Assembly: GCA_002385805.1 (NCBI GenBank)
Contig: DGEF01000124.1
Coordinates: forward strand, 1 to 55,942
DNA length: 55,942 nt
Direction of reading: 5' to 3'
From: Peptococcaceae bacterium UBA3933
GTDB taxonomy: Bacteria; Bacillota; Peptococcia; Peptococcales; BICA1-8
Part shown: piece by piece, positions 12,938 to 45,986 of the stretch
Numbering within the stretch: the first letter of the stretch is position 1
Layout: every line of letters begins with the position of its first letter
Made by a program: the position numbers and the translations under genes
The notes under the pieces: model-generated
What the model was told of the DNA's origin: nothing
Database searches by the model: none
The model's input: the letters and a program-made list of their open reading frames with translations, nothing else

Positions 12938-13477
12938 TTAGTGGCTAATGGTTAGTGGCTGGTGGCTAGTATCACGACCTTCTGTCGTTTTCCCTATACA
13001 GGCAATCTGCATGTCGGTGGGCGAGTGAGCGAGTGGGCGAGTCAAATACTTTTCATCGCGAAAGAGAAAAGCAACTAAAGCGAACCCCTCATTTTACGCA
13101 CCGTTATAAATGGGGATATTTTACTTGAGCGGCTATACGGAGAATCGGCTAAATAATCTTAGCGTAGCCGAAGTAATAAAAGCTGGCTGGACGATAGGAC
13201 GTCGTCCAGAGTGCGAATTGGGCCATGGACGGCCCATTGAGCACGGTCAGCTTTTATTCTCTAGCAAGCTTAGATTATTCCGATTCGGAGTTTTTAGCCT
13301 AGCGAAAGTAAATATTTCCATGACATTGACTCGCTCAATGACCCAAAAAAATCTCAGTAGCCGTCATACCGCCCCCAAATATTCGCCCAAAAGCCATAAT
13401 GCCGTCCCAAAAACTAAACCCCAAAGCTGTAATGCTGACATGCAGTATAGCTCATTAGACGTAATGCCATCCTAAAG
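12938..13477. repeat. composite word-array intergenic element, copy A
   Basis: In order on the + strand: a GTGGCTAGT-type array (12938-12970), a CACGACC unit (12971-12990) and a GGGCGAGT array (13017-13043). Then comes a roughly 210-nt imperfect inverted repeat (13110-13321), followed by four units with a 32-33-nt period and a TAATGC core (cores at 13364, 13397, 13430, 13462). Confidence 0.9.
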
Positions 13478-15895
13478 TCAATGCTTATATTTCCATCTTT
13501 TTAGCCGCAGAGCGTTGCTCACTACCGACACAGAACTAAAAGCCATGGCACCTCCGGCAATAACCGGTGATAATAAACCTAAAGCAGCAATAGGAATGCC
13601 TAATGTGTTATAAATTAGAGCCCAGAATAGATTTTCCTTTATATTTCTAATAGTGGCTTTGCTAAGTTGGATAGCGGCCACTATTCCTTCTAAATCACCG
13701 CTAATTAAGGTAATATCGGCCGTTTCCATGGCTACATCAGTACCGGTGCCAATAGCAATACCTACATCAGCCGTAGCCAAAGCAGGGGCGTCATTAATTC
13801 CGTCACCCACCATAGCTACAACTTTACCTTCATTTTTTAGTTTTTGTACTTCTTCCGCTTTTTTCTCCGGTAATACTTCTGCTAAAACCTTTTCTATCCC
13901 TACCTGATTAGCTATAGCTTGAGCCGTTCGCCGGTTATCGCCGGTAATCATGACTACCTCAATTCCCATTTCTTTGAGTTTCTTTATGGCTCTGGCCGAA
14001 CTTTCCTTAACCGTATCACTTACAGCTAAAATACCCGCCAAATCAATATCTAAAGCCACTAACATGGCTGTTTTACCTTCGCCTTCTAACTTCTCCAGAT
14101 TAGGTAAAAAAGCATCTATATTTATCTGATTTTTTTCCATTAATTTACGGTTACCTAATAAAATTCTTTTTCCCTCAATTTGCCCTTGCACACCATGTCC
14201 TGGTATGGCCTGAAAATCTTTTACTTCTAAAAGCTTCAGACCTCGCTTCTGACTATATTGCACAATTGCCTGGGCTAAAGGATGTTCCGAATTTTTCTCG
14301 ACACTTGCCGCATAAACTAAAAGCTCTTCTTCAGTAATACCCTGGGCCACAAGAATATCCGTAACCTGAGGTTCCCCTTTAGTAACGGTACCCGTTTTGT
14401 CAAAAACTACTGTATTTATCTTGTGAGCATTTTCCAGATGCTCACCACCTTTAATCAATATGCCGTTTTCCGCTCCTTTACCTGTTCCCACCATAATTGA
14501 AGTAGGTGTGGCCAGTCCTAAGGCACAAGGACAGGCAATAACTAAGACGGCTATAGCCGGCAGTAAGGCTTCGGTAAATTGACCTGGAGCAGCAATAAAA
14601 TACCAAATGACAAAAGTAAGAAAAGATATAGCTATTACCACCGGTACAAAATAGGCAGAAATCACATCGGCCATCCTCTGAATAGGTGCCTTAGAACCTT
14701 GGGCTTCCTCTACCACTTTGATGATTTGGGCCAAAGCCGTGTCTTTGCCCACTTTGGTGGCCTTAAACTTAAAACCGCCGTGTTTATTGATAGTAGCGCC
14801 AATAACCTCACTACCTACATTTTTATCAACCGGTATACTTTCCCCGGTCAACATGGACTCATCTACACTGGAACTACCTTCAATTATTATGCCGTCCACC
14901 GGGATTTTTTCCCCTGGTCGGACAAAAATAATGTCACCTACTACCAGTTCTTCAACAGGAATATCCAATTCCCGGCCTTCACGAATAACCCGAGCGGTTT
15001 TCGGTTGTAACCCCATTAATTTTTTTATTGCTTCAGTGGTACGTCCTTTAGCTTTTGCTTCTAGATATTTTCCAAAGAGAACCAAAGTAATAATGATAGC
15101 CGCACTCTCATAATAAACATGACTTGTACCAATCCAATTACTGAAAAAGGTGGCACCAACACTGTAAAAGTAAGCAGCTGAGGTACCTAAGGCTACTAAA
15201 ACGGACATGTTGGCACTACCGCCTTTAATCGCCCTATAAGCATCCACATAGAAATAACGTCCTACACCAAACTGCACCGGTGTGGCTAAAACAAACTGAA
15301 AAAGTGGACTCATGAGAAAAGCTGGAACTATTTCATGCAAATTAAACCAATCTATAAACATCATGGCTAAAAGAGGTAAAGAAAGAAGAGCAGAAAGGAT
15401 AACGAGATTTTTCTGCTGCTTAATCTCCTTCTCCCTGGCTTCCCGCTCCCGATCCGTACTGCCTTCTTCATCTGCTTCAATTACTTCATAACCAATTTCG
15501 CGTATTTTCTTTTTTAAATCAGCTATGCCGACTATACTCGGTACATAATGAATATGAGCCTTTTCTAAAGCTAAATTAACATTTGCTTCCAAAACTCCCT
15601 CTGTCTTATTAAGTCCCCGCTCAACTCGACTGGAACAGGCGGCACAGGTCATGCCTTGAATTTTAATTTCCACTTTATCTGTGGGCACATCATAGCCGGT
15701 TTCCTTTATTTTCGCAATGATATCCTTTAATTTTATTTTGTCCCCATCATAAATAACACTGGCTTTTTCCGTACCTAAATTAACATTAATCTCCATAACT
15801 CCTTCTAATTTAGGTACTTTTTTCTCTATACGAGTTGCACAGGCAGCACAGGTCATACCTAAAACCTGAAATTGTATTTTTTTTAAATTGGCCAT
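13478..15895 (-). CDS. copA: copper-translocating P1B-type ATPase
   Basis: Two N-terminal HMA domains (GMTCAAC twice), a CPC transmembrane motif ([11 protein letters not shown]), DKTGT phosphorylation site, and GDGINDAP. Confidence 0.95.
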
Positions 15896-15936
15896 GATGA
15901 GTCCTCACCCCCAAAAAAAATTTAAGAACATTATAA

Positions 15937-15955
15937 CATATACCCCCAGGGTGTA
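15937..15955 (-). promoter_or_regulatory. candidate CsoR-type operator overlapping the copA promoter
   Basis: The minus strand reads ATACACCCTGGGGGTATAT, a pseudo-palindrome with a G-tract. It sits immediately upstream of a TATAAT box (15935-15930) and the copA RBS. Confidence 0.55.
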
Positions 15956-15967
15956 TCTAGAGAAATT

Positions 15968-16642
15968 TTAACCTTCTATCAGGTCCTGGAAAGCTTTCGT
16001 CCCTTTTATATTCATAAAATCCGGGTCTTTGGCAGCAAATTTCCTATTTTCCTCATTTAATTTAATGGCAATTTTTAAAGCACGTAAAGCTTTATCTTGA
16101 CGTCCCATTAAAGCATAAGTGCAAGCTAAATTGTACCAGCCATTGTCATAATAAGTATTTAGCCCCAAAGCTTTTTTATGACAACGGAGAGCTTGGTTAT
16201 ACTTGCCTAAATCAGCATATTCTACTCCCAAATTAGAATAGAGTACAAAAGAATTAGGATCAAAAAGTAACCCTTGTTTATAAGCTTTAATAGCCTCTTT
16301 CCTTTTCCCCAAGGAAGAAAGCTCTACACCAATATTCAGGTATGTTTCCACATCATAAGGATTAATATTAAGAGCTCGCTTATATTCTCTTAAAGCTTTT
16401 TTACTTTTTCTTAGCAGTGAATAAATTTGTCCTAAATTATAGCGAGCCTCAAAAAACTTTGGATCTATTTGGAGAGCTTTTTTAAAATAAAATTTAGCTG
16501 TAGATAATTGGTTCATCTCCCGGTAAATATTTCCCATTTGAAAGTAGATTTCGCAGGCTTCACCCGGGTTATTCTTCAAGAGCGTGCGCAACTTTTTCAA
16601 TGTTTTTTCATAATTAGAAAGGTCTATTTCTGTATTGTCCAT
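15968..16642 (-). CDS. TPR-repeat protein
   Basis: Repeated 34-aa units with the A..Y/F..AL..(D/N)P pattern throughout (for example AKFYFKKALQIDPKFFEARYNLGQIY). Confidence 0.85.
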   Translation of the reverse strand: MDNTEIDLSNYEKTLKKLRTLLKNNPGEACEIYFQMGNIYREMNQLSTAKFYFKKALQIDPKFFEARYNLGQIYSLLRKSKKALREYKRALNINPYDVETYLNIGVELSSLGKRKEAIKAYKQGLLFDPNSFVLYSNLGVEYADLGKYNQALRCHKKALGLNTYYDNGWYNLACTYALMGRQDKALRALKIAIKLNEENRKFAAKDPDFMNIKGTKAFQDLIEG

Positions 16643-16744
16643 GATTAACCCCCTTTGTATTCTAATCTGTTAACTTGTGTTGATAAGAATATGTTTTGGT
16701 TAATATCTTCTCCTTGTTAATCAATGTTCATCCTTAGTAAAACT

Positions 16745-16772
16745 AAACCCTTAGGTCTCCACCTAAGGGTTT
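16745..16772 (-). terminator. terminator at the end of the ahb operon
   Basis: Stem AAACCCTTAGG / CCTAAGGGTTT overlapping the stop codon; on the minus strand it is followed by TTTAGTTTT. Confidence 0.65.
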
Positions 16773-17244
16773 ATTCTTCTACAAAGTAACGCATACTTGT
16801 TTTTTTGAATTCTTTTTCACTAAAAAGTAACCGGTAATTTTCAATTCCCACTACTTGGGACATTTCTTTTGCCAGTTGGAAACACTGTTCTTCCGTCTCG
16901 GCATGAATCATAGTATAAATATTATAAGGTAGTTTAGGCAGCATAGGCCGCTCATAGCAATGAGTCACCTGAGGAAAAGAAGCCAGTTTCTGACCTACCT
17001 CTTCCACTTTTTCTGAAGGAACCTGCCAGATGATCATGGGGTTAGCTTTTAAACCCATTCGCCTGTGCCTTAAGGCTGCTCCCATACGGCGAATGTATCC
17101 TTTTTCTTTAAATTCTTTTACTTTCTTCAGCACCTGTTCTTCAGACATTCCCAATTGTTCTGCGATTATTTTAAAAGGTTGGGGGTGAACAGGTAAATCT
17201 TCCTGCAATTTTCTAATCAAGGCTTTATCCAGCTCACTTAACAA
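16771..17244 (-). CDS. AsnC/Lrp-fold siroheme decarboxylase subunit (AhbA/AhbB, NirD/L/G/H-like)
   Basis: 157 aa. HTH-like N-terminus (LDKALIRKLQEDLPVHPQPFKIIAEQLGMSEEQV) plus a C-terminal Lrp-like domain. Paired with a paralogue and a NirJ-like radical SAM gene. Confidence 0.75.
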   Translation of the reverse strand: MLSELDKALIRKLQEDLPVHPQPFKIIAEQLGMSEEQVLKKVKEFKEKGYIRRMGAALRHRRMGLKANPMIIWQVPSEKVEEVGQKLASFPQVTHCYERPMLPKLPYNIYTMIHAETEEQCFQLAKEMSQVVGIENYRLLFSEKEFKKTSMRYFVEE

Positions 17245-17713
17245 AATCTTTCTCCCCTTCTTCTAAACCGGGAACATAAAAGTTAACCTTGATTTTAAAT
17301 AATTTACGTGCCGGCAACTCATAAACTTTAAACCCGGTTTTTTCTTCTATTTCTTTAATGGTCTCCTTAAGTTTATTTTCCGAAGATGTAATCAGGGTAA
17401 ACCATAGGTTATAATCGTGTTGGCGTAAATAATTATGAGTAACTCCTGTATAACTATTGACAATGGAAACCACATCGGCTAATTTTTCTTCCGGAACTTC
17501 CATAGCACAAAGGGTGCTTTTGTACTTTAATTTCCGGGAATCAAAAACACCACCTATTCTACGGATAATTCCTTCATCTTTAAATTTGCTTACCCGCCGT
17601 ATAATCTCTTCCTCTGAAATCCCCAGCTTCTTGCCAATTTCCTTATAAGGGCGGGAACAAATGGGAAAATTGTCCTGGATTATGGTTAATAATTTTTTAT
17701 CAATATTATCCAT
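17234..17713 (-). CDS. AsnC/Lrp-fold siroheme decarboxylase subunit (AhbA/AhbB, NirD/L/G/H-like)
   Basis: Paralogue of the downstream gene (IDKKLLTIIQDNFPICSRPYKEIGKKLGISEEEI). ATG 17713 lies 9 nt after GGAGG and overlaps the upstream stop codon; the track start is TTG 17719. Confidence 0.75.
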   Translation of the reverse strand: MDNIDKKLLTIIQDNFPICSRPYKEIGKKLGISEEEIIRRVSKFKDEGIIRRIGGVFDSRKLKYKSTLCAMEVPEEKLADVVSIVNSYTGVTHNYLRQHDYNLWFTLITSSENKLKETIKEIEEKTGFKVYELPARKLFKIKVNFYVPGLEEGEKDFVK

Positions 17714-18899
17714 TAACAACTTCCTCCGTTAAACCAATTTCTTCATCCGTTAAGTAGCAGGCAGGGTCGGATTCCCAAAAATTACCTGTTACTGCTTCTG
17801 CTCTGGCCCTAAAATTACCGTTACAAATATCTAACCATTTACACTTAGCACAGCGACCCACTAACAGACCTTTCCGGTCTTTTAAACCTTTTAAAATAGG
17901 ATTGCTAAGATCTGTCCAGATTTCCCCGAATTTCCTTTCCCGCACATTCCCAAAGGTATGATTTTGTGTAAATTGGTCCGGATGTACATTCCCGTACCAA
18001 TCCACCTCACCGATGGCAATTCCGGAGCGGTTGCCTCCATTGTATTTTAGTAATTTTAAAACTTCTCCAGCCCGCTGAGGGTCTTCTTTCAAGAGGCGCA
18101 AGTATAAATAAACACCGTCTGCATGGTTATCTACCGTTAATACTTCTATATTTAAACCTTTTTTATGAAAATACTGTACTTTATCTATAATTAAATCTAG
18201 TGCCTGTCTGGTTTCTTCATGGCTAATATCTTCCTCAATCATTTTACTTCCTCGACCGGAGTAAACCAAATGGTAAAAACAGACCCTGGGGATTTTCTCT
18301 TCTTCTAATAAATCAAATATCCCATCTAACTCATGAAAATTATGTCTATTAATTGTAAAGCGCAATCCCACCTTTTGACCAACAGCCAAACAGTTGCGAA
18401 TACCTTCTAATGCCAGATCGAAAGCCCCTTTTTTTCCTCTAAACCGGTCATTATTCTCACCTAGACCATCTAAACTGATACCCACATAACCTACTCCAAT
18501 TTCCTTTAATTTTTTGGCGATTTTATAAGTTATTAAAGTACCATTGGTAGAAAAGGTAGTTCGTATACCCTTTTTAGCTGCATATTCGGCCAAATAGAGA
18601 ATATCCTCCCGCATAAAGGGCTCCCCGCCGGAAATCAAAAGAACTGGAACTTTAAACTCCTGTAAATCATCTATAAAGGTAAGAGCTTCTTCTGTAGTTA
18701 ACTCACCCTCATATTTTCGATTATCAGAACCGGCATAACAATGGATACACCGTAAATTACACGTTTTTGTACAATTCCAAACTACTACCGGCCCCCGACC
18801 GTGAGTTGTCCCATGACATGCTCCTTGGGAATTATGAGTATACCTAAGACTATCACCGAAATTATTAGTGTTTACCAAGAGCTTACTTATACCTATCAT
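17706..18899 (-). CDS. radical SAM/SPASM enzyme, NirJ/AhbC/AhbD-type (alternative haem biosynthesis)
   Basis: Canonical CNLRCIHCY (CxxxCxxC) motif and GGEPFMRED. C-terminal Cys cluster CAKCKWLDIC..ACY. Co-operonic with the two AhbA/B-like genes. Confidence 0.8.
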   Translation of the reverse strand: MIGISKLLVNTNNFGDSLRYTHNSQGACHGTTHGRGPVVVWNCTKTCNLRCIHCYAGSDNRKYEGELTTEEALTFIDDLQEFKVPVLLISGGEPFMREDILYLAEYAAKKGIRTTFSTNGTLITYKIAKKLKEIGVGYVGISLDGLGENNDRFRGKKGAFDLALEGIRNCLAVGQKVGLRFTINRHNFHELDGIFDLLEEEKIPRVCFYHLVYSGRGSKMIEEDISHEETRQALDLIIDKVQYFHKKGLNIEVLTVDNHADGVYLYLRLLKEDPQRAGEVLKLLKYNGGNRSGIAIGEVDWYGNVHPDQFTQNHTFGNVRERKFGEIWTDLSNPILKGLKDRKGLLVGRCAKCKWLDICNGNFRARAEAVTGNFWESDPACYLTDEEIGLTEEVVNG

Positions 18900-18990
18900 G
18901 AAACAACCTCCTAAAGGATTAAAGAGTTATAAATATTCATAATAATATCTTACCACATATCTTACCTTCTGTGTCCATTAATAATAACTA

Positions 18991-19458
18991 TTATAAATGC
19001 AAATGATTTTTTATTTCTACCGGTAGTGAACATATAAGATATGGTGCCACCCTAGCTATTCTACTGATGGCCCAAATTAATCCCTGGTGACACATGGGGT
19101 TAGCTAAAGAATTAGTTATCAGTAAAGAAGTAAAGTTACCAAATAAATGGGGCTGGCTACTTATGATGCTGGCCATAGCCTCCGGAGAACCCCAAGGCAC
19201 ATTACCGGACTCTTGATCCATGGACAAAACAAGGCGCTCCAAAAAGTTTTTATACACTTCCGGTTTTTGAGAACCGAATTCTTTAGCCAATCTACCTAAA
19301 GCTTCAATAGCATACCATCTCAATGGGTTATGATAACCATGATATAAATTCAAGCGAATATACCTTAAAACTTTTTTGTGATTTTTAGCCGCAATTTTAA
19401 TTAAAGCATCATATTTTTGCTCTGCTAACAATTGGACCACTAGCTGTTTGTTTACCAC
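18991..19458 (-). CDS. hypothetical helical-repeat (HEAT-like) protein, first gene of the ahb operon
   Basis: 155 aa and helical. Contains an RWYAIEALGRLA-type motif reminiscent of HEAT repeats. No catalytic motif recognised. Confidence 0.4.
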   Translation of the reverse strand: MVNKQLVVQLLAEQKYDALIKIAAKNHKKVLRYIRLNLYHGYHNPLRWYAIEALGRLAKEFGSQKPEVYKNFLERLVLSMDQESGNVPWGSPEAMASIISSQPHLFGNFTSLLITNSLANPMCHQGLIWAISRIARVAPYLICSLPVEIKNHLHL

Positions 19459-19522
19459 TTAAAACCCTCCGCTTTTATACCATCACTCCTATATAATTTA
19501 ACCTGTAAAAATTTTTTTATAA

Positions 19523-19544
19523 GATTTAAGAAGGATTTAAGAAG
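19523..19544 (+). repeat. perfect tandem direct repeat, 2 x 11 bp (GATTTAAGAAG)
   Basis: Read directly: 19523-19533 equals 19534-19544. It ends 15 nt upstream of a -35 box. Confidence 0.9.
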
Positions 19545-19559
19545 GAAAATTAACTCACT

Positions 19560-19588
19560 TTGACAAATATCATATTAAAAAGTAATAT
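19560..19588 (+). promoter_or_regulatory. near-consensus sigma-A-type promoter for the 19611 gene
   Basis: TTGACA (19560-19565), a 17-nt spacer, then TAATAT (19583-19588). The GGAGG RBS and ATG follow. Confidence 0.6.
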
Positions 19589-19610
19589 AAAGTTGCGGAG
19601 GTAAAGGCAA

Positions 19611-20720
19611 ATGGGTTTTATGAGTGTTTTAAAAAATATCCTGGGTCCCAAACCCCCTAAGAAAAAGAAACCTATTACCCAAATGCAGTTAGAAATTTCC
19701 CATTTATCACCTACGGAACCAGAGGAAAATAAGTTCATGGACAAAGAAGTGTTTTTAAGAATAGCTAACTTCTTTGACCAGGTAAAAGTAGTCAATTTCT
19801 CAGGTTGGGGAGATCCTCTGGAACATCCTGAAGCTTTGGAAATGTTCAGGATTGCCCGCGAAAAGGGAGGCCGAGTACATATTGTTACGGAAGGAAAACT
19901 CCTTACACCTTCTCTCTGCCAACAAATTGTTGAACTGGGAATCGAAAAACTTACTATTAAACTTTGCCCTCCCCACAATACACTGGACCAGGTAAGAGAA
20001 AGTCTGGAAAATATTTTAAGCCTACGGAAAAATGACCCTGAGATTATCCTGGATTATAAACTGACAGTTAATAATTTAAACCTGTTACCTCAAGTTTTGG
20101 AATCCGCATCCTCTTTAAATATTAACGAATTCAAAACCAGTAACCTTGATTTTATTTTCACGGAAGAATTAAATAATTCTAAAGTTTTTGAAGGTAAAGT
20201 ATCCGATGAAAACAGAGGTGATTTAATAAAGCAAGGTAAGGTAAAAGGAAAAGCGGAATATGAGGAGATCATTAGCCAGACAGAAAAAATCGCCAACAAG
20301 TTAGGTGTTTATTTCACCCCTCCCCAGACACTGGTCCCCAAAGAAGCTGTTGTTTGTGAGTATGAACCTTTAAAGAATGTCTTTATTACCTGGGAAGGAC
20401 GCCTTGCCCCTTGTCCTTTTCTATCCTTGAACAAAATTAGTTACTATTTTAATGAACAAAAATTAGAACAAACACCCTACATTGTAGGTGATTTAAAAAC
20501 AACTGACCTGGAAAATCTGTGGAATGAAAATAAATATGAAGAATTTCGGAATGTTTACCAAAAAAGAGTACAGTTATTTAATGCATACATGGAAGAAACT
20601 TTTGAAGGTGAACCTAATGCCCAATTACTAGCTAATAACTATGAAAAATTAGATAGGCAGTTACTAGAAAATAAGGTGCCTGACTGTTGCCGCAGTTGTT
20701 ATAAAGCTTATAGCATATAA
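19611..20720 (+). CDS. radical-SAM-fold/SPASM-like protein lacking the CxxxCxxC SAM-cluster motif
   Basis: Retains GWGDPLEHP (equivalent to GGEPLL.P), VTEGKLL (equivalent to TNG.LL) and a SPASM-like C-terminus (VVCEYEP..GRLAPCPF..VGDL..LW..CCRSCYKAY). The cluster-loop position reads LEISHLSPTEPEEN, with no Cys. Confidence 0.6.
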   Translation: MGFMSVLKNILGPKPPKKKKPITQMQLEISHLSPTEPEENKFMDKEVFLRIANFFDQVKVVNFSGWGDPLEHPEALEMFRIAREKGGRVHIVTEGKLLTPSLCQQIVELGIEKLTIKLCPPHNTLDQVRESLENILSLRKNDPEIILDYKLTVNNLNLLPQVLESASSLNINEFKTSNLDFIFTEELNNSKVFEGKVSDENRGDLIKQGKVKGKAEYEEIISQTEKIANKLGVYFTPPQTLVPKEAVVCEYEPLKNVFITWEGRLAPCPFLSLNKISYYFNEQKLEQTPYIVGDLKTTDLENLWNENKYEEFRNVYQKRVQLFNAYMEETFEGEPNAQLLANNYEKLDRQLLENKVPDCCRSCYKAYSI

Positions 20721-20746
20721 ATAAAGTCGCTTTAAAGCGACTTTAT
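20721..20746. terminator. bidirectional hairpin between convergent genes
   Basis: AAAGTCGCT-TTAA-AGCGACTTT, flanked by A/T runs. Confidence 0.7.
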
Positions 20747-20977: not shown

Positions 20978-21003
20978 ATTTACCCCCTTCTGCCTCTGAT
21001 TTC

Positions 21004-21759: not shown

Positions 21760-21783
21760 CTAACAGTAATTGTTTTATGTTCA

Positions 21784-26154: not shown

Positions 26155-26177
26155 GTTTATTAACCTCCGGTTAATAT

Positions 26178-26478
26178 GTGGCTAGTTTTTAGTGGCTAGT
26201 GGCTAGATTTATGAACCACGGATAAACCTTGCAGAGTATCCCAAAATCAGTTACTGACCAAAGCATTAGCCCCAGAGACGTAATGCCGCCCCGAAAGCTA
26301 GGCCCGGAGGCCGTAATGCCGTCATGCAGGTTAGCTCGTGAGCAGTCATGCCGTCCCAAAATATTCGCCCAAAAGCCGTAATGCTTACATGCAATATATC
26401 TTAATTATATATGTTGCTGGGGGTAAGTTCCACCGGGAAAAAATTACTAAACCTTAACCTCTACTTTGACCTTATAGA
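26178..26478. repeat. composite word-array intergenic element, copy B
   Basis: In order: a GTGGCTAGT array (26178-26206) and ATTTATGAACCACGGATAAACC (26207-26228). Then four units with a 32-33-nt period (TAATGC/TCATGC cores at 26281, 26314, 26346, 26379), followed by AACCTTAACC words (26448-26478). Confidence 0.9.
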
Positions 26479-35158: not shown

Positions 35159-35198
35159 GTGAGCGAATAGGCCCGTTAATATTAAGACTCGCTCACTA
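35159..35198. repeat. mini-copy of the GTGAGCGAGT word as a hairpin
   Basis: AGTGAGCGA-22 nt-TCGCTCACT, using the same word found in copies A and D. Confidence 0.5.
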
Positions 35199-36025: not shown

Positions 36026-36029
36026 TTTA

Positions 36030-37617: not shown

Positions 37618-37663
37618 AATCGTTCCTCACTTTTACCAAAGAAATGAGTTTATTTTTAAATCC

Positions 37664-37690
37664 GAAAAAAGACGTCCCTACAAGACGCCT
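37664..37690 (-). terminator. terminator after rex
   Basis: On the minus strand, GGCGTC-TTGTAGG-GACGTC (one G-U pair) followed by TTTTTT. Confidence 0.55.
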
Positions 37691-37706
37691 TTCTACGCTC
37701 AACAAA

Positions 37707-38354: not shown

Positions 38355-38361
38355 CCTCCTT

Positions 38362-38379
38362 TTGTGACAATTATAACAT
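38362..38379 (-). promoter_or_regulatory. candidate Rex operator overlapping the rex -10 box
   Basis: The minus strand reads ATGTTATAATTGTCACAA. This matches 11 of the 14 specified positions of the Rex consensus TTGTGAA-N4-TTCACAA, and contains TATAAT. Confidence 0.45.
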
Positions 38380-38420
38380 ATGCAAGAAGACTTCTACAAT
38401 AATCTACAAAATTTAAACAA

Positions 38421-39242
38421 TCAATTAATTAATACCTTGTTAGTAACCTTTTCTATTGTTTCATGGTAACAATCAATTAATTCTAAAAGATACCCTTGAC
38501 ATAGTAAAACAGCCTCATCCCGCTTTGTTTCTCTGATTTTATCCAAAACTTGCCCATATATAATAGCTTTTTCTTTTAACATTGACAATTCTTGATAATA
38601 GTTTTTACTTTCATCCATTTGTAAAATTTGATCAGTTTTAGAAATCGCCCTATTTACTTCCTCTTGGATTTTATTAATCATTTCCGACCAAACTTGTTCT
38701 TTATAAACGGAATAATGAGGTGAGACAAACATTTTTAAAGAATGATTTAAAACTAGATTATACTCTCCCAAAAGAGGAGCAAATTTTCCAGCCATAAAAC
38801 TATTGTCGGACGGGAATTTCAAAGCCCGGTCATTAATTAAACCTTCACCGATAAATATTTCAAAACCTTTTTTCTCTAAATTTTCTTTGAGGACAATTCC
38901 ATTATTTTTTTCACTAAAACAACCTACCCAAATTTTATAAGGTGGCCCGGAAGAAACGAAAGGCCTTAAACCTATTTCTATAAGCCGATCTATATTAGCT
39001 TGAGCCGCTTTCACTTCCGAATATATACCTATCTGTAATGTATAGAATTTTACAGAATCCAAACGCAACACTTTTAATTTTTCTACCGGAGCAGGATTTG
39101 AAAGAGTTTCGCTTACAGGGTTGTCCTCTGACAATATATTATAAATATAATAACTACCTAAAAACTGGCCAAACAAAATACAGATTACCACAATATTTAT
39201 AGAAACAAGAACTATTACAAAAATTTTGCGGAAATTGATCAT
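38421..39242 (-). CDS. membrane-anchored SPOR-domain protein
   Basis: N-terminal TM helix. SPOR-like segment YTLQIGIYSEVKAAQANIDRLIEIGLRPFV..YKIWVGCFSEKNNG. Confidence 0.7.
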   Translation of the reverse strand: MINFRKIFVIVLVSINIVVICILFGQFLGSYYIYNILSEDNPVSETLSNPAPVEKLKVLRLDSVKFYTLQIGIYSEVKAAQANIDRLIEIGLRPFVSSGPPYKIWVGCFSEKNNGIVLKENLEKKGFEIFIGEGLINDRALKFPSDNSFMAGKFAPLLGEYNLVLNHSLKMFVSPHYSVYKEQVWSEMINKIQEEVNRAISKTDQILQMDESKNYYQELSMLKEKAIIYGQVLDKIRETKRDEAVLLCQGYLLELIDCYHETIEKVTNKVLIN

Positions 39243-39260
39243 ACCTTCACCCCAAGATTT

Positions 39261-39380
39261 GTGGCTAGTTGATAGTGGCTAGTGGCTGAAATTATTAAAC
39301 CACGGATAAACACGGATGGACACACATAAACACGACCGAAGGTTGTAATACTAGCCACTAGCCTCTAGCCACTAACCACT
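39261..39380. repeat. composite word-array intergenic element, copy C (long hairpin)
   Basis: The left arm GTGGCTAGTTGATAGTGGCTAGTGGCT (39261-39287) is complementary to the right arm (39351-39379) at 23 of 27 positions. The loop carries 10-nt periodic CACGGATAAA-type units. Confidence 0.9.
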
Positions 39381-39392
39381 ATGTTTTATATC

Positions 39393-40694
39393 TTATTCAG
39401 TGATGAAGGTTTTTAGAACATATTCTCTACTTTCACCTACTAAATAAAAGGACCCGCAAATACAGACCAGGTCATTACTATGGGCAATATTTAAGGCACA
39501 CTCTATGGCCCGGCGATAATCTTCCTCAACTAAAACATTATCGGTGTATTTATGGGCAATTTCGGCTAAACTTTGCCAATTACCGGCCCTAGGACTAAGG
39601 GGTTTAGTTATTATTAAGGTATGAGCTAAAGGTGCAAGATAGGCCAGCATTTTCTCCTGTTCCTTATCACTTAAAATACCTAAAACCATAACCAATTTTT
39701 CATAATTAAAATATTTTGGCAATGACTGCGATAAACGAAAAGCCCCATCAGGGTTATGGGCTCCATCCAGAACAATTTGCGGTTTTGTGTCATAATACTC
39801 CAGTCTCCCAGGCCATTTGACTTTTTCCAAACCTTTTTTAAGATCGGCTGGCGGGATTATCCAACCCTTTTCTTTTAATACTTCAACGGTAGCAATTGCC
39901 GTTACTGCATTTTCCAGTTGATGGTCACCTAATAAAGGCAAGAAAAACTCACCATAATCATTCTGGCCAGTCTTTACTTTAAAAAACTGCCCATAGCTGG
40001 AAAAACTTATTTGTTCATAAATATAATCACTGGCCCGGTAAAAGGGAGCTTGTTTTTCTTGAGCTTTTTGGGCTAATACTTTTTCCACCTGATCATCCTG
40101 CCGGGAAATGACTACTGGAACTCCTTTTTTAATAATTCCCGCTTTTTCCTGGGCAATTTGGAATAAATCAGACCCTAAATAATCTGTATGATCCATGCTA
40201 ATACTGGTAATTACCGCAACTTCCGGCATAACCACATTGGTAGAATCCAAGCGCCCCCCCATACCTACTTCAAAGATAGCAATATCCACCTTCTCTTTTG
40301 CAAAGTAGTTTAAGGCTAAAGCGGTAAGCACCTCAAATTCGGTGGGGTTTTCCCCCACCTTTTTTAACACTTGAGGTATCAATCTTCTTAAATACTCCAT
40401 TTCTTTGCTAAAATCCGCTTCAGAAATCTCCTGTCCGTTGATTTTAATCCTTTCCCGGTAATCATGAAGATGAGGGGAAGTAAAAACACCTGTTTTATAT
40501 CCACTGGATTCCAGTATACTGGCCAGCATGGCTGTTGTAGAACCTTTGCCGTTGGTCCCTCCCACATGAATAGTCTTTATTTTAAAGTGAGGATTATCTA
40601 ACAAATTTAAAAGATTAGTAATCCGCTCCAAACCCAAATTAATACCAAATTTACATAATTCATGAAGGTAGGCCAGAGCTTCGGAGTAGTTCAT
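39393..40694 (-). CDS. folC: folylpolyglutamate synthase / dihydrofolate synthase
   Basis: GTNGKGST P-loop in a Mur-ligase fold. Lies downstream of valS as in Bacillus. ATG 40694 lies after GGAAG; the track start is 40718. Confidence 0.9.
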   Translation of the reverse strand: MNYSEALAYLHELCKFGINLGLERITNLLNLLDNPHFKIKTIHVGGTNGKGSTTAMLASILESSGYKTGVFTSPHLHDYRERIKINGQEISEADFSKEMEYLRRLIPQVLKKVGENPTEFEVLTALALNYFAKEKVDIAIFEVGMGGRLDSTNVVMPEVAVITSISMDHTDYLGSDLFQIAQEKAGIIKKGVPVVISRQDDQVEKVLAQKAQEKQAPFYRASDYIYEQISFSSYGQFFKVKTGQNDYGEFFLPLLGDHQLENAVTAIATVEVLKEKGWIIPPADLKKGLEKVKWPGRLEYYDTKPQIVLDGAHNPDGAFRLSQSLPKYFNYEKLVMVLGILSDKEQEKMLAYLAPLAHTLIITKPLSPRAGNWQSLAEIAHKYTDNVLVEEDYRRAIECALNIAHSNDLVCICGSFYLVGESREYVLKTFITE

Positions 40695-40745
40695 TTGTTC
40701 ACTTCCTTTTAGTGGCACCGGTTTTCCGCACCCACTGCACTAGGG

Positions 40746-43388
40746 TTATTTTAGGCTGTCCAACCTGGTTAACAAGGCCTCTTTATTGGCCTGGTATTTA
40801 TTAAGTTTATCTTTTTCTTTATCAATTACTTCCTGGGGAGCCTTGGCCAAGAACCCTTGGTTACTTAATTTTTTCTCAAGCCTACTGATCTCCTGTTCCA
40901 TTTTATCTACTTCTTTTTCTAAACGGGCAATCTCTTTTTCAATATCAACTAGGCCTTTCAAAGGTAAAAATATTTCAATCCCCTGTACAACTGCGGTAAC
41001 CGCCTGTTGAGGTTTTTGGGCTAATTTTAATTCCAATTTCAAATTGCTGACAGTAGCCAGCTGCTTAATAAATCCTTCCCCATTACTAATAACCGTTAAA
41101 TAGTCCTCCCTGTTGGCTCCAATAATAATTTCCGCCTCTATACCCGGAGGAATATTCATTTCACTACGCAAGTTTCTAATAGCCCTGATGATTTCCATAA
41201 CTAAGGCCATTTCTTCCTCAATCTTCTTATCTACAAATTGCTCCTCAACCTGAGGCCAGGTTGTTAACATAATTGTTTGGCCTTCATGAGGCAGATGCTG
41301 CCAAATTTCCTCTGTAATAAAAGGCATAAAGGGATGTAACAATTCCATGGTTCCCCGTAAAACATTAGCCAGAACACTTTGGGCAGTAGCCTTGCTTACC
41401 TCATTTTCTTTACCGTATAGACGTGGTTTCACCAGTTCAATGTACCAATCACAAAACTCACTCCAGATAAAATCATAAAGCAATCGTGCAGCTTCCCCTA
41501 ACTCATACTTTTCTAAAAGTTTTGTTACTTGATCTACGGTAGAATTAAAACGACTTAAAATCCAGCGATCCGCTAGATTATACTGGGGAGCATATTTTCC
41601 TTCTTCATAATCTTTTAGATTCATTAAAACAAAGCGAGCTGCATTCCAAATCTTGTTGGCAAAATTACGGGTAGCTTCTAATCTTTCAAAATGAAATCTT
41701 AAGTCGTTCCCAGGGGTGTTACCGGTTATCAGCATAAACCTTAAAGTATCTGCTCCATACTCTTCAATTACCTCTAAAGGATCTACCCCATTACCCAAGG
41801 ACTTACTCATTTTTCGCCCTTGAGCATCCAGAACTAAACCGTGGATAAACACTTCTTTAAAAGGTATTTCCTCCATGGCATATAAAGCTGTAAAAATCAT
41901 CCTGGCTACCCAGAAGAAAATGATATCTCTTCCCGTCACCAACACACTGGTAGGATAATACTTGGCTAAATCCTTTGTCTGCTCCGGCCAGCCTAAAGTT
42001 GAAAAGGGCCATAAACCTGAACTAAACCAGGTATCTAAAACATCCGGATCCTGCTCTAAATTATGAGAGTTACATTTAGGACAAGTTGAAGGATTTTCTT
42101 TACTACAAATCACTTCCCCACAGTCCTGGCAGTACCAGACGGGTATCCTATGCCCCCACCATAACTGGCGAGAGATGCACCAGTCTCTAATGTTCTCCAT
42201 CCAGTCCAGATATATTTTGGTAAACCTTTCCGGAACAAAACGGGTTTTACCTTCTTTAACTACTTGAATAGCCGGTTGGGCTAAGGGCTTCATTCTTACA
42301 AACCATTGTTTAGAAACTAAAGGTTCGATAACTGTATCACAGCGGTAACAATGACCTACTGCATGATCATGGTCCGTTATTTTAACCAGGTAACCTTGCT
42401 TTTCCAAATCCTCAACAATTCTCTTACGGCATTCATATCTATCCAACCCTTGATAAGGTCCCGCATTTTCATTCATACGAGCATCTTTGCCCATTACAAC
42501 CACCTCAGGCAAGTTATGTCTTCTTGCCACCTCAAAATCATTAGGGTCATGGGCAGGTGTAATCTTAACGGCTCCGGTACCAAACTCTCTATCAACATAT
42601 TCATCGGCTATTACCGGAATCACTCTGTTGACAATGGGTAAAACAAGGTTGGTACCTATTAAATGAGCATAACGTTTATCTTCCGGATGAACTGCCACTG
42701 CTGTATCTCCCAGCATGGTTTCCGGTCGTGTAGTAGCTATTTCGATATAATCAGTGCCGTCTTCAGTAGGATAGCGCAAATGATACAGCTTGCCTTTTTC
42801 TTCGGCATGTTCTACCTCAATATCGGAAATGGTGGTCTGGCAATGAGGGCACCAGTTAATAATATAATTATCCTGATAGATCAAACCATCGTTATACAAG
42901 CGGACAAATATTTCTCTTACTGCCTTGGAACAACCTTCATCCATAGTAAAACGTTCCCGGTCCCAATCACAAGAGGTTCCCAGTTTTCTTAACTGTTGAG
43001 TAATCCGGTTACCGTACTGTTCTTTCCAGGCCCAGGCCCTTTCCAAAAACTTTTCCCGACCCAATTCATGCTTATTTGTTCCCTCTTCAGCTAATTGGGC
43101 TTCAACTTTGGCCTGGGTAGCTATCCCGGCATGGTCAGTACCGGGGAGCCATAAGGTATTATACCCCTGCATCCTCCGCCAGCGGGTCAAAATATCCTGT
43201 AAAGTATTGTCCAAAGCATGACCTAAATGTAAAGAACCGGTCACATTAGGGGGAGGCATAACAATGGAAAAATGAGGCTTGTCCTCATCCACATCGGCAT
43301 GGAAGAATTTATTATTTTCCCAATAAGTATACCATTTTTCCTCTACCTGCTTAGGATCATAAACTTTCGATAAGTTATTCTCAGTCAT
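40746..43388 (-). CDS. valS: valine--tRNA ligase
   Basis: HIGH-type motif (SLHLGHAL), KMSKS, and a C-terminal coiled coil. ATG 43388 lies after AAAGGAG; the track extension to 43439 runs into the T-box terminator. Confidence 0.95.
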
Positions 43389-43877
43389 TAACTTTTCTCC
43401 TTTCCAATTTGCTGACAATATTATAAAAGCCTCTCTCATCCCTAAGGACGAAAGAGGCTACTTCCGCGGTACCACCTTAATTTCACAATAAATGTGACTC
43501 TTTACAAGCTATAACGGGCTTTCCCGAAGAAACCTACTGAGTTAGTGACTAGTGACTGGTGACTAGTCACTAGTTGGTAGTGGCTAGATTTAGTGATTAG
43601 TGACTGGTGACTAGTAATGTCTTAGTCTTAACCTCAACCTTAACCTTACGACCGTAGGGAGTTTAAATCTCGCCCACTCGCCCACTGACATCTTGAGTGT
43701 CCCGTGAGTGTTAGACTCGCTCACTTCTTTTTCCGTTCAGTTTCCTGCCTCCGGGGCTACCTTCAGGTTGGAGCATCCAGGGAATTTTTCAGCCAAGAAT
43801 TCCCCTCTCTTTAGGAGCCGGAACAACCCTACTCCTCCCCTTCAACGGCTGTTATATTATAAATACACTTTCACATT
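43389..43877 (-). promoter_or_regulatory. T-box leader of valS, unusually long
   Basis: On the minus strand: the T-box sequence AATTAAGGTGGTACCGCG (core at 43476-43465) and a terminator stem (43459-43428) followed by a U-rich run. Stem I has an AGAGA element (about 43850-43730). There is a UUCG-capped stem III (about 43537-43518). Confidence 0.8.
43541..43726. repeat. composite word-array element, copy D, inside the valS T-box leader
   Basis: GTGACTAGT/GTGGCTAGT words include a 19-nt direct repeat TAGTGACTGGTGACTAGT[CA], present twice, and the 12-bp palindrome GTGACTAGTCAC. AACCTTAACC words lie at 43621-43650. CGCCCACTCGCCCAC and GACTCGCTCAC words lie at 43669-43724. Confidence 0.9.
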
Positions 43878-43883
43878 TTCTAT

Positions 43884-43911
43884 ATTATACAATGAAATTC
43901 ACCTCTGTCAA
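43884..43911 (-). promoter_or_regulatory. consensus sigma-A-type promoter for the valS leader
   Basis: On the minus strand: TTGACA (43911-43906), a 16-nt spacer, then TATAAT (43889-43884). Confidence 0.6.
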
Positions 43912-44402
43912 GTTCCGAAAAATTTTTGCTTTTTCGCTTCTTTAAAGCTGTAGCCCAGGCGTGCTTTTTTGGCCTGTAATGCTTTTAATCCCACTATTCC
44001 GCCGGAAGTTCCCAGCATTACTGAGGCTGCCCATTGAAAAAGCACATGTTCCCAGCCGACTAAAGTAGGGACAACTTCTAATAAGAAGATGGCTGAGAGA
44101 AATCCTAAAAATACCCCTGTCCACAAACCATGCTGCCATCCTTTAAATCCTGCCCGATAAGCTGCCAAAAATCCTCCTAAGAAAAATACACTCCAGGTTA
44201 CTAATTTCAATAAACCTTCCATGACATAAATTGTTTCATCAGTGAAAATAACCAGACCCATAGTGCCCATCCCTACTAAAAGTATCCAGAGAAACAGGGA
44301 CATTAAAATACCATACCATAATGCGGCAAAACTAACCCCCAATTCTTTGCTGTCCGTAAATTTTTTTATGCTTCCACTGATTTTCCTTAAATCTTTTTTC
44401 AC
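43908..44402 (-). CDS. hypothetical integral membrane protein (about 4 TM helices)
   Basis: 164 aa with hydrophobic helices. Resembles small Firmicute membrane proteins of unknown function. Confidence 0.6.
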   Translation of the reverse strand: MKKDLRKISGSIKKFTDSKELGVSFAALWYGILMSLFLWILLVGMGTMGLVIFTDETIYVMEGLLKLVTWSVFFLGGFLAAYRAGFKGWQHGLWTGVFLGFLSAIFLLEVVPTLVGWEHVLFQWAASVMLGTSGGIVGLKALQAKKARLGYSFKEAKKQKFFGT

Positions 44403-44545
44403 CTCAGTCCTCCCCCTTTATTTACTAAACTCAGTAAATTTCTATGTAAAAAATATAAAATTATTCAAATTAATAGAAATTATTACTACTGAACTCTAAT
44501 TTTTTGAATATACATAGATTGAGTTTTTCGGGAGGTGAAAATCCG

Positions 44546-45583
44546 GTGAACCGGAAAAAATGGAGCATTTTATTAATATTTCTATTTTCAGTAATATTAA
44601 TTACCGCCTGTCATCTGCTAAAAAAAGATTCACCTTCTCTTACCACTATTCACTTACAGGAGTTTTCTCACAGCATTTACCATGCACCTCAATATGTGGC
44701 CGTAAACAAGGGTTTTTGGGCAGAAGAAGGCCTCATAATCCGAATAGAACAAGCTAAAAGTAATCCTCAGGAAATAATAGAGGGACTGCTTACAGAAAAT
44801 ACAGAAATTTTGTTAATTGACGGGCAATTAATACTACCTTTACTTAAATCATCGGCGAGAGAAAATATAATCGGTTTTGCTCAAATAACTCAGAATGAAG
44901 GCTCTTTTTTAGTCCACCGGGAAGAAAAACATGATTTTCAATGGGAAGACCTAAAAAAGGAAATAATTATTAGTAGCCCCTCGGAAACCTTATCCCAAGC
45001 TCTTTTAGAATATGTTCTTAGAGAGAATAAAATCAGACCTTATCGCGAGGTGGATGTGGTTGAAAATATTCCTTCAAAGGAACTGGCGGTAGGTGTATTT
45101 AAAAGCGGTAGCGGAAATTTAATTCAACTTTCCGAACCCCTTGTTTCTCTAGTAGAACAAGAAAAAGAAGGCTATGTTGTCACTTCTTTGGCCGGGCAAA
45201 TTGGCAACATCACTAACGGTGTATATGTAGCTCCAAGAGATTATCTGGAAACAAAACAGGAAATCATTCAAAAGTTTACCAATGGCTTATATAAAGCTCA
45301 AATCTGGTGTGCTACCCACGATGCAAAAGAAATTGCCCAGGTAATAAAACCTTTTTTTCCTGAAGTAAAAATGGAAATTCTCGAAACAGCAGTAAACCGG
45401 TACAAAGACCTGGAAGTCTGGAATACTAACCCTGTTATTCAAAAAGAAAGTGTAGCCAGACTCCAGGAAATTCTGACAAATGTAGGAAAAATGGGGGCAG
45501 AAATTTTTGAAAATGATTTTATAGACAATTCCTTTGCCCAAAATGCCATAGAAAATATCCCCTGGCCGGAAGAAAGCAAGTAA
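44546..45583 (+). CDS. ABC-type substrate-binding protein, NMT1/THI5 (SsuA/TauA-like) family, orphan
   Basis: Signal/anchor with a Cys (ILITAC), then FSHSIYHAPQYVAVNKGFWAEEGL, typical of the NMT1/THI5-like fold. GTG 44546 lies after GGGAGGTG; the track start is 44504. Confidence 0.65.
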   Translation: MNRKKWSILLIFLFSVILITACHLLKKDSPSLTTIHLQEFSHSIYHAPQYVAVNKGFWAEEGLIIRIEQAKSNPQEIIEGLLTENTEILLIDGQLILPLLKSSARENIIGFAQITQNEGSFLVHREEKHDFQWEDLKKEIIISSPSETLSQALLEYVLRENKIRPYREVDVVENIPSKELAVGVFKSGSGNLIQLSEPLVSLVEQEKEGYVVTSLAGQIGNITNGVYVAPRDYLETKQEIIQKFTNGLYKAQIWCATHDAKEIAQVIKPFFPEVKMEILETAVNRYKDLEVWNTNPVIQKESVARLQEILTNVGKMGAEIFENDFIDNSFAQNAIENIPWPEESK

Positions 45584-45986
45584 CTAGTGACTGGAATTAT
45601 GAACCACTAATGCACACAGATTAACACAGATAAACACTAATGGTTCGCCTAACGGCGAAAAATATTGATATCTTTTGAATGAGCATCTGCTTTAAAGCTC
45701 TTTATTAGGGATGCATCTGCTCACGGGTTAAAATTTAGGGATGCATCGTCTTTAAAGTAATCTTTCAGGATGCATCAAAAAATGAATCCTAAAAGCAGAT
45801 GCATCATGCAGCATAACCCTAAAGCAGATGCTCATATAGAATTGCAATAATTATTTTTTCGCTTACTCGCCACATGCCCACTACAAACTAGTCACTAGTC
45901 ACTAATCACTAAATCTAGCCACCAGCCACTAAAAACTAGCCACTAAACTATTTGTATTCATCCGTGTTTATCCGTGGTTAATAATT
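45582..45986. repeat. composite word-array element, copy E (about 400-nt imperfect palindrome between convergent genes)
   Basis: The terminal inverted repeat is AATTATGAACCAC (45595-45607) against GTGGTTAATAATT (45974-45986). An internal perfect 16-bp inverted repeat is ATGAGCATCTGCTTTA (45679-45694) against its complement (45820-45835). Five GCATC cores are spaced 29-30 nt apart. A GTGACTAGT/GTGGCTAGT array lies at 45887-45946. Confidence 0.9.

Follow-up and report, generated by a model that had tools for sequence, protein, structure and literature searches.

Modular word-array repeats in the intergenic spacers of an uncultured Peptococcaceae bacterium, probably a lineage-specific family of mosaic foldback-type elements

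The stretch of DNA analysed here (the window) comprises positions 1 to 55,942 of contig DGEF01000124.1 from Peptococcaceae bacterium UBA3933 (assembly GCA_002385805.1). It is chromosomal DNA of an uncultured Firmicute with a GC content of about 38%, and its genes, located mainly on the minus strand, include a conserved block of valS with its T-box leader, folC, further genes, mreBCD, minCDE and rodA. Five of the intergenic spacers, referred to as tracts A to E in order of position, and a short segment between B and C, referred to as 'mini', carry tandem arrays of short, degenerate words, and these tracts are the subject of this report. A preliminary description, made from the letters of the window, had regarded them as copies of one modular family and had suggested a structured RNA or DNA element affecting gene expression. 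Its description of the tracts was largely right, whereas its functional inference found no support. In our judgement the tracts are probably lineage-specific, non-coding, mosaic intergenic repeats of foldback type, similar to bacterial interspersed mosaic elements (BIMEs), REPINs and miniature inverted-repeat transposable elements (MITEs), which are tolerated in transcribed spacers.

All of the words listed in the preliminary description were recovered in place. Of 20 window matches to the heptamer word TGRCTAG/CTAGYCA, 18 lay within the five tracts, while all eight matches to the octamer GTG[AG]GCGA/TCGC[CT]CAC fell in A, D and 'mini' (about 0.8 expected), and all four matches to GATGCATC fell in tract E (0.4 expected). 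All-versus-all BLAST of the 29 window spacers of at least 40 nt, run with a shuffled-spacer control, gave a cluster consisting of exactly A, B, C, D and E, in which 9 of 10 pairs were linked with E-values down to 1e-15. Shuffled spacers gave a mean of 0.2 linked pairs, compared to 9 in the real data, and the sole other linked pair was formed by the two ends of an insertion sequence (IS). The shared vocabulary of the tracts was thus borne out by word clustering and by BLAST links well above chance. Among these links were those of D 43559-43615 with E 45887-45943 (57 nt, 86% identity, complementary), of A 12939-12991 with C 39329-39381 (53 nt, 83%, including the hairpin ACGACC..GGTYGT), and of B 26178-26211 with E 45910-45943 (34 nt, 97%, complementary), and the occurrence of modules in both orientations was confirmed. 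Within such common blocks, distant spacers carry variant units in identical order and run on into non-repetitive junctions, an arrangement which independent slippage would not yield.

The words themselves were redefined using Tandem Repeats Finder (TRF). The period of the main word, previously given as about 9, was found to be 7 (GTGGCTA, TAGTGAC, ACTAGCC, ACTAGTC), and other periods were 8 for GTGGGCGA, 10 for TAAACACGGA and 6 for CTTAAC. Period 7 was assigned at 26178, 39261, 39350, 43543, 45887 and 45915, with 3.6 to 10.6 copies, and the array at 12939 was scored as period 14, corresponding to two heptamers. Seven heptamer arrays are therefore present in 56 kb, every one of them in a spacer. 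The 32-33-nt units with GTAATGCC and the 29-30-nt units with GATGCATC had been listed as separate modules; however, they align as one family of about 30-33 nt with the consensus G.C.GCAT(TA)CGGCTTT.GGG.TAA.., which holds GATGCATC in one variant only. Intermediate forms exist (GTCAGCAT-CTGCTTTTGGG...), and an array in the related locus L294 grades from one type to the other. The element kit thus consists of tandem 6-, 7-, 8- and 10-nt units, two small GC hairpins, conserved junction words, and the 30-33-nt unit, which is able to build nested palindromes. These modules follow a preferred order of ~30-nt units, AACCAC junction with decamers, hairpin, hexamers, second hairpin, heptamers and octamers, and the arrays are frequently arranged as inverted arms. 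Since the full set of modules, in a constant relative order, was found within single tracts of sister genomes and digester metagenomes, the earlier comparison with a modular mosaic of BIME or BOX type holds.

The composition of the arrays differs from that of the remaining window. CTAG was observed 66 times outside the tracts compared to 126 expected (0.52), making it the second most avoided tetranucleotide there, while 22 of all 88 CTAG sites lie inside the tracts, which make up 3.7% of the DNA. The other of the two most avoided tetranucleotides was CGCG (observed/expected 0.49), and ACTAGT was absent outside the tracts (3.2 expected) and occurred six times inside. Because the period is 7, stop codons occur in 34 of the 36 combinations of heptamer array and reading frame. 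The arrays of A, B and C close shortly before the start codons at 12921, 26154 and 39242, as had been described, and the gaps measure 16, 23 and 18 nt.

Tract A begins with a heptamer array of TAGTGGC type, about 4.5 units long (12938-12970, +). On the sense (minus) strand this array has the form CTAGCCA, and 16 nt separate it from the start codon of a DUF218 gene. It adjoins a small hairpin, ACGAC-CTTCT-GTCGT (12974-12988), and this heptamer/hairpin junction recurs in tract C (39332-39346) and in the metagenome locus L291 (CGACCGAAGGTCG). An octamer array of GTGGGCGA/GTGAGCGA with 3.2 units follows (13017-13043, +). Beyond it we found a TwoAYGGAY RNA (RF01731; 13135-13293, +), antisense to both flanking genes and not recognised in the preliminary description, which scored 57.2 bits against the Rfam gathering threshold of 43 and covered model positions 1-168, i.e. 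the full length. This RNA lies between the octamer array (13017-13043) and a remnant of an inverted octamer (13328-13337), and a simple scan showed no promoter-like site upstream of it. In L297, a truncated 3′ half of TwoAYGGAY with the same flank (GCGAAAGTAAATATTT[C/T]CATGAC) adjoins ~30-nt units, about 200-300 nt downstream of the core match, so that in this lineage the orphan motif behaves like a dispersed module or passenger. The rest of the tract is made up of about four tandem 32-33-nt units of GGCATTAC type in minus-strand reading (13359-13483, +), reaching the stop codon of a Cu-ATPase gene. An open reading frame (ORF) of 121 aa (13110-13475, +), which crosses both TwoAYGGAY and the ~32-nt units, had no Pfam match and is almost certainly spurious, although it was called as a gene in one assembly (L176). 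A simple scan of spacers A, 'mini' and E showed neither promoter-like nor intrinsic-terminator-like sites inside them; two weak promoter-like matches straddled the adjoining gene ends and were no more than shuffled sequences gave.

In tract B, 4.1 heptamer units of GTGGCTA (26178-26206, +) end 23 nt before the start of rodA, and are followed by an ATTTATGAACCAC junction with one decamer of CACGGATAAA type (26207-26228, +) and by a tandem run of four to five 32-33-nt units, which read GGCATTAC/GGCATGAC on the minus strand and all share one orientation (26230-26400, +). This unit array folded no better than shuffled sequences (z = -1.9). The word AACCTTAACC, which had been listed for B, is present there in one weak copy only. 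Tract C combines 3.9 heptamer units of GTGGCTA (39261-39287, +), ending 18 nt before the start of a 273-aa gene, with an AAATTATTAAACCAC junction, 3.8 decamers (TAAACACGGA) and the hairpin ACGACC-GAA-GGTTGT (39288-39346, +), and with 4.6 heptamer units of ACTAGCC (39350-39381, +) that are inverted relative to the left array. Through these inverted heptamer arrays the whole spacer forms one long predicted hairpin (z = -3.2). The 'mini' segment (35159-35198) consists of one octamer, GTGAGCGA, and its inverse, TCGCTCAC, separated by 22 nt and able to form a hairpin. It had been counted as a copy of the family; with a single octamer and its inverse, and no significant alignment, it is a weak member.

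Tract D lies inside a regulatory RNA. The valS T-box leader (RF00230; 43441-43854, -), located upstream of valS, scored 107.8 bits against a gathering threshold of 93, and 195 nt between the two sides of Stem II are left out of the covariance-model alignment. Tract D (43535-43727, -) is thus an insertion of about 195 nt in the apical loop of Stem II, containing 10.6 heptamer units (43541-43616), CTTAAC hexamers (43621-43650) and octamers (43669-43724), and the insert folded no better than shuffles (z = -0.9). The preliminary description had D ending just before Stem III of the T-box. The length of this loop varies widely in the sister species. It is short in L190 and in L187 (about 40 nt in the latter), while L189 carries about 170 nt, the window 195 nt and L188 about 330 nt. 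The repeats in it also differ, with (TAAGGY)n in L188 and L189 and heptamer, hexamer and octamer arrays in the window. The window, L189 and L190 gave T-box matches that exceed the gathering score, while the match in L188 was split into two sub-threshold pieces because of the Stem II insert. Outside the loop, the leader matched the T-box model in every species scanned (the window, L188, L189 and L190). Because this fit persists despite such varied inserts, the comparison suggests that the apical loop of Stem II in the valS T-box is a permissive, recurrent insertion site. The longest valS ORF (40746-43439, -) encodes 897 aa, and most assemblies call a form of 880 aa from 43388; this shorter form matches homologues over their full length, so that the distance from the T-box terminator to the start codon is about 50 nt longer than the ORF list implies. 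Of four tracts previously assigned to transcribed spacers, D is confirmed by its location in the T-box leader, while transcription of A, B and C is plausible, as each lies between genes of the same direction and a scan of A, the one of the three examined in this way, predicted neither a promoter nor a terminator. Elements co-transcribed with their neighbours would add hairpins to the mRNAs.

Tract E has the most elaborate structure. Its left part (45582-45659, +) comprises a heptamer stub (AACTAGTGACTGG), AATTATGAACCAC, decamers (ACACAGATAA) and the GC hairpin TTCGCC-TAAC-GGCGAA, a composite which is also present in L291. The core (45672-45835) is a 164-nt nested palindrome of ~29-30-nt GATGCATC units with the termini GAGCATCTGCTTTA...TAAAGCAGATGCTC, and its predicted folding energies on the two strands were -63.5 and -66.8 kcal/mol (z = -6.9 and -7.8). 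It is followed by degenerate inverted octamers, CGCTTACT CGCCACAT GCCCACTA (45860-45883, +), by heptamer arrays of ACTAGTC and CTAGCCA (45887-45946, +), and by inverted decamers (ATCCGTGTTT ATCCGTG) with GTTAATAATT, the inverse of the AACCAC junction (45950-45986, +), which adjoin the stop codon of an FmdE gene. Homologues of the core were found three times in L188, twice in L114 and at about 13 metagenome loci. In an alignment of six core copies from three species, the most conserved feature was a set of five invariant GATGCATC palindromes, 29-30 nt apart. The predicted helices mainly pair these invariant palindromes and the covariation term was +0.51, so that a conserved RNA structure of the core was dropped; the covariation analysis proposed in the preliminary description thus gave no support for a regulatory structure.

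Exact-protein look-ups placed the genes of the window in many assemblies from anaerobic digesters and bioreactors (a Foulum biogas reactor and several ENA, JGI and Logan samples) and in the NCBI metagenome-assembled genomes (MAGs) GCA_012728695.1 and GCA_029782065.1. The closest relatives of ValS, at 81-83% identity, came from MAGs labelled Clostridia or Peptococcaceae (BICA1-8, BRH_c20a), followed by Desulfonispora and Thermanaerosceptrum at 73%. Four sister-species loci, L187 to L190, are syntenic with the window and their ValS proteins are 80-83% identical to it. The valS leader measures 336 nt in L187, 918 in L188, 557 in L189, 560 in L190 and 519 in the window, and the valS-folC spacer 17, 259, 240, 89 and 27 nt, respectively. 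Long sister spacers hold the same vocabulary at other positions, and the valS-folC spacers of L188 and L189 are full of modules. TRF detected the same 6-, 7-, 8- and 10-mers at non-orthologous sites in L188, L189, L291, L294, L297, L114 and L087, and none of them in 15.6 kb of L187. Within 15 kb of L188 there are three composites of GTGGGCGA octamers, a GATGCATC core of about 170 nt and heptamers, which are about 90% identical to one another and only 66-70% identical to the core of E and to the two copies in L114, a digester MAG. The difference between these values indicates spread or homogenisation within the genome.

Further copies were retrieved from metagenomes with a two-block signature of the core, and about 13 of them, from bioreactors and digesters, were genuine. 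In L291/L295, a single tract holds all the modules, in the order ~32-nt units, GATGCATC units, AACCAC junction with decamers, hairpin TCGCC..GGCGA, hexamers, inverted hexamers, hairpin CGACCGAAGGTCG, heptamers CCAGCCA and octamers, and tracts C and E are recognisable sub-sets of this order. All core copies are intergenic, located in 5′ regions, between cistrons, at 3′ ends, in convergent or divergent spacers, and downstream of an rRNA operon; the last is a six-unit GATGCATC element directly following a 23S-5S-tRNA operon on a metagenome contig (L301, 8721-8899). About 10 copies are co-directional with the adjacent gene, 4 are opposite and 3 are ambiguous. An orientation rule, raised in the preliminary description and promising in L188 (3/3) and L114 (2/2), was dropped because the larger sample was not significantly biased, and the call itself is fragile or ill-defined since the core is nearly palindromic. 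A comparable architecture was observed in Dialister spp. (L063, L100, L124, L126), where (AGTGACT)n arrays flank a conserved core of about 55 nt (TTGAATACCACTTTCGGGCATCGCC...GCGGCGAAGCCGCCACC) without a match in Rfam. A second, different heptamer array, (AACCCTG)n, comes next, with a junction resembling ATTTATGAACCAC of the window.

Among strains, 6-10 independent assemblies per tract span the tracts at 98-100% identity, which shows that the tracts are real DNA. The tracts had about 7.6 substitutions per kb (per-tract counts pooled), compared to 2.3 per kb in coding DNA, a roughly threefold difference. The sole structural polymorphism was found in strain L006 (SRR17386481, 3525-3640, orthologous to 26155-26260), in which the start-proximal part of tract B is replaced by other heptamers (CTAGTCA/CCAGTCA) and a different decamer-like segment, with unchanged flanks. 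Presence or absence of elements at orthologous sites was thus seen between species and in L006, but not among the other strain assemblies. A hypermutable repeat of the phase-variation type was dropped, as unit numbers were constant in all of these comparisons of near-clonal strains.

Other features of the window include its only transposase gene, an IS1182/IS5-like DDE transposase (DDE_Tnp_1_6, DUF772; 1490-3094, +), whose flanks at about 1357-1429 and 3226-3296 are 67% complementary over 73 nt. Two tandem paralogues (3433-5439 and 5635-7623, +) encode 2,4-dienoyl-CoA-reductase-like proteins with Oxidored_FMN and Pyr_redox_2 domains, and their DNA is 71-79% identical along its length. In strain L182 (contig ERZ27245369, 5714-6837), an IS with a UPF0236-family transposase gene lies directly after the DUF3792 gene, at the site which is the valS T-box promoter region in other strains.

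The interpretation of the tracts as mosaic foldback-type repeats is based on the finding that composites are dispersed, are homogeneous within genomes, vary in presence at orthologous sites, are confined to spacers and evolve under weak constraint. Composite pieces would be copied between spacers by gene conversion or by an activity acting in trans, either transposition or recombination, and replication slippage would then locally expand, contract and degrade the arrays. Insertions would persist only where they do little harm, such as between genes, in 5′ or 3′ untranslated regions, or in the tolerant Stem II loop of the T-box, and effects at the RNA level (hairpins, stop codons in six frames) would not reflect a dedicated regulatory function; they would be by-products of selfish or neutral DNA or would limit its harm. 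Several observations weigh against this interpretation. Between the invariant GATGCATC palindromes the core sequence diverges across species, and conserved words together with spaced palindromes could mean sequence-specific recognition with a cellular function. Unit numbers did not change among the 6-10 strain assemblies per tract, the length change in L006 being the only one, and tracts so stable within a population give no direct sign of ongoing mobility or slippage. In about 7 of the 8 start-proximal heptamer arrays inspected, the sense strand has CYAGYCA; this polarity is a hint, inseparable from the direction of replication. Filled and empty valS-folC spacers (L188 versus L187 and the window) revealed no clear target-site duplication or boundary, and no trans-acting mobilising gene was found in the window; the ends of its only transposase element and of the L182 IS are unrelated to the modules. 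A stronger version, in which the tracts are the visible part of an actively propagating modular system, with arrays and GATGCATC palindromes serving as foldback recognition arms mobilised by an enzyme in trans, is possible, although we think it unlikely. In such a system the cargo cores could vary, as with the palindromic array in E and the TwoAYGGAY RNA in A, and the succession of heptamer array, core and heptamer array in Dialister suggests that the architecture might be widespread.

Two rivals to the interpretation as foldback-type repeats carry the most weight, namely recognition by proteins and a functional role of the RNA in cis, and we regard each of them as improbable. The tracts might serve as arrays of DNA binding sites for one or several sequence-specific proteins, for chromosome organisation, as ends recognised by a recombinase, or as operators; candidates would be a nucleoid-associated or ribbon-helix-helix protein on the 7-8-bp units or a dimer on the GATGCATC palindrome. 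The invariant palindromes with their regular spacing and divergent intervals, the persistence of 6-, 7-, 8- and 10-mers across species while sites turn over, the direct and inverted arrangement as in heptad operators, and the concentration of the otherwise avoided CTAG in the arrays all favour this. The heptad consensus of the omega repressor is WATCACW, which one unit, AATCACT (in the run ...CTAATCACTAAAT...), fits; most heptamers, however, differ from it. Moreover, a suitable protein was not identified, several binders would be required for the five or more different words, any kind of spacer is occupied while the orthologous spacers of L187 are without arrays, and invariant palindromes in hairpin arms are equally expected for ends recognised by a transposase. 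The proposal of a protein recogniser, which might be an enzyme binding the ends of the elements or a cellular DNA-binding protein, is nevertheless kept alive. As cis-acting RNA, the tracts might stabilise mRNAs or provide RNase processing sites, as has been proposed for REP and BIME sequences, insulate translation through six-frame stops immediately before the following ribosome-binding site, or modulate the T-box. Such roles would agree with the certain transcription of D in the T-box leader, the position of A to C between co-directional genes, the lack of a predicted promoter or terminator in A, the strong hairpin potential of the E core and tract C, and the heptamers that end 16-23 nt before three start codons with stop codons in nearly all frames. 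Against them, the orthologous spacers of sister species are empty or hold other modules. Covariation is lacking, the E core folds equally well on both strands while the B units and the D insert fold no better than shuffles, the orientation relative to genes is not significantly biased, and the substitution density exceeds that of coding DNA. Together these points leave the specific regulatory role suggested in the preliminary description without support.

Independent local replication slippage, by which the tracts would be ordinary simple sequence repeats (SSRs) without dispersal and their words would reflect a genome-wide mutational preference, is very unlikely. Many bacterial genomes contain an excess of heptameric SSRs, ascribed to polymerase slippage (PMC4692102); arrays of (AGTGRCT)n are found in many phyla, and control heptamers are similarly common. 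However, distant spacers share both the order of variant units and non-repetitive junction words, non-repetitive cores of about 165-200 nt are 90% identical within a genome, and the module order is fixed across loci and species; the common junctions and cores already largely refute slippage as the only process. The chance that the tracts are assembly artefacts created by repeats is practically negligible. One scaffold (L003) has an N-gap precisely at array B and many arrays in other genomes lie at contig ends, but the assemblies that span each tract with the same sequence come from different samples and were made with different assemblers.

If the interpretation as foldback-type repeats is correct, a rich mosaic family from a Firmicute lineage of digesters would be added to the known range of repetitive extragenic palindromes (REPs) and BIMEs, MITEs, and short tandemly repeated repetitive (STRR) sequences. 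There are practical consequences, as the arrays break short-read assemblies (the gap at tract B), produce spurious ORF calls (the 121-aa ORF in A), and can mask or split matches to RNA families (the T-box of L188). We believe that the Stem II loop is the most interesting case, since it represents a natural experiment in which sister species carry from 40 to about 330 nt of unrelated arrays at the same place of the leader. Were the system actively propagating, it would point to an undescribed mobilisation mechanism and would give the orphan TwoAYGGAY motif a mobile-element context.

In order to relate the tracts to known classes, Rfam was searched at gathering score with the whole window and at permissive E-values with tracts A, B, D and E. 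The T-box and TwoAYGGAY were the only families recovered, the other permissive matches, to miRNA and snoRNA models, being noise far below threshold. A literature search for the word strings returned no paper containing them in the library searched, and no similarity to plasmids (tracts A and E) or phages (tract E) was detected. The earlier statement that the elements belong to no named family therefore holds for the parts without an Rfam model, but not for the heptamers, which fall in the documented class of intergenic heptameric SSRs and STRRs, nor for the part of A that is TwoAYGGAY. Both AYGGAY hairpin loops of that RNA (RF01731; PMC2864571) are present in 13135-13293, which amounts to 159 nt of tract A and explains no word array.

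The heptamer word was also searched for outside this lineage. Three consecutive units of AGTGRCT occurred in at least 120 stretches in 185,579 species genomes, from many phyla and with a GC content of 36-72%, the matches listed including Dialister, Brevundimonas, Planctomycetes, Acidobacteriota, Chamaesiphon, Shewanella, Geobacter and sister Clostridia MAGs. Among these listed matches the arrays were intergenic, often in inverted pairs and often grading into other heptamers, and many lay at contig ends. In a viral collection, three composition-matched control heptamers gave 18, 74 and 8 stretches compared to 34 for the target, and the notion of a special conserved heptamer was dropped, since control heptamers were about as frequent. 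Tandem heptamers of any sequence are thus common, and the breadth of AGTGRCT reflects a general SSR phenomenon.

Similar families have been described in other bacteria, including three heptanucleotide families in Calothrix, as well as GGGAATC in Xanthomonas and GGGGA(C/T)T in Nostoc, both intergenic, often in inverted pairs and variable between close relatives, with no established function (PMC4692102); heptanucleotide and octanucleotide array families are also reported in the Geobacter metallireducens genome paper (PMC2700814). The heptamer module of the window is a member of this class, with which it shares tandem degenerate 7-nt units in 2 to about 10 copies, dispersed intergenic arrays, inverted hairpin-forming pairs, wide variation between related species and the lack of a demonstrated function. 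It differs in its CTAG-containing unit, GTGGCTA/GTGACTA, which does not form G-quadruplexes, in its Firmicute host, and in making up only one component of a larger mosaic, joined to other arrays and cores by fixed junctions. STRR sequences occur in heterocystous cyanobacteria (Calothrix, Nostoc), and the units of the Calothrix families are CCCCAGT, TTGGTCA and CAACAGT. The window array does not belong to the named cyanobacterial STRR families, given its Peptococcales-like Firmicute host and the different unit, GTGRCTA. A link to IS607 was dropped, because 'STRR' in the source literature meant streptomycin resistance (Str^R).

With the REP, BIME and REPIN elements of proteobacteria (PMC3116915), the tracts share an extragenic location, mosaics of short units and specific linkers in both orientations, inverted doublets forming hairpins in single-stranded DNA or mRNA (E core, tract C), frequent intercistronic or 3′-end positions with co-transcription, and a homogeneity within genomes suggesting selfish replication. 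Unlike those elements, which belong to another phylum, the window units are mostly non-palindromic tandem 6-10-mers together with the ~30-nt unit, and the REP head motif and the defined linker grammar of BIMEs are absent; the tracts are thus not 20-60-nt imperfect palindromes with a head motif. No Y1-transposase domain (RAYT, IS200-like) was found in 50 ORFs scanned within the 56 kb, 49 of which constitute the gene map. A CRISPR array was dropped as well, as the ~30-33-nt units are contiguous without spacers and no cas domains occur in the window.

MITE-like repeats (ERIC, Correia/NEMIS, pneumococcal RUP and BOX, cyanobacterial Nezha and small dispersed repeats) resemble the tracts in their length of 100-250 nt with multiple copies per genome, their terminal inverted repeats or hairpin potential (the 164-nt core of E with GAGCATCTGCTTTA / TAAAGCAGATGCTC), their presence or absence at orthologous sites, and their insertion into transcribed spacers. 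A direct link to an IS was dropped, as the ends of the IS1182/IS5-like element of the window and of the UPF0236 IS in L182 are unrelated to any module. The pneumococcal BOX element is likewise modular, being built of boxA, boxB and boxC with a variable number of boxB. In contrast to MITE-like repeats with simple terminal inverted repeats, the arms of the window elements are made of short tandem units, and in this they resemble eukaryotic foldback elements more than classical bacterial MITEs.

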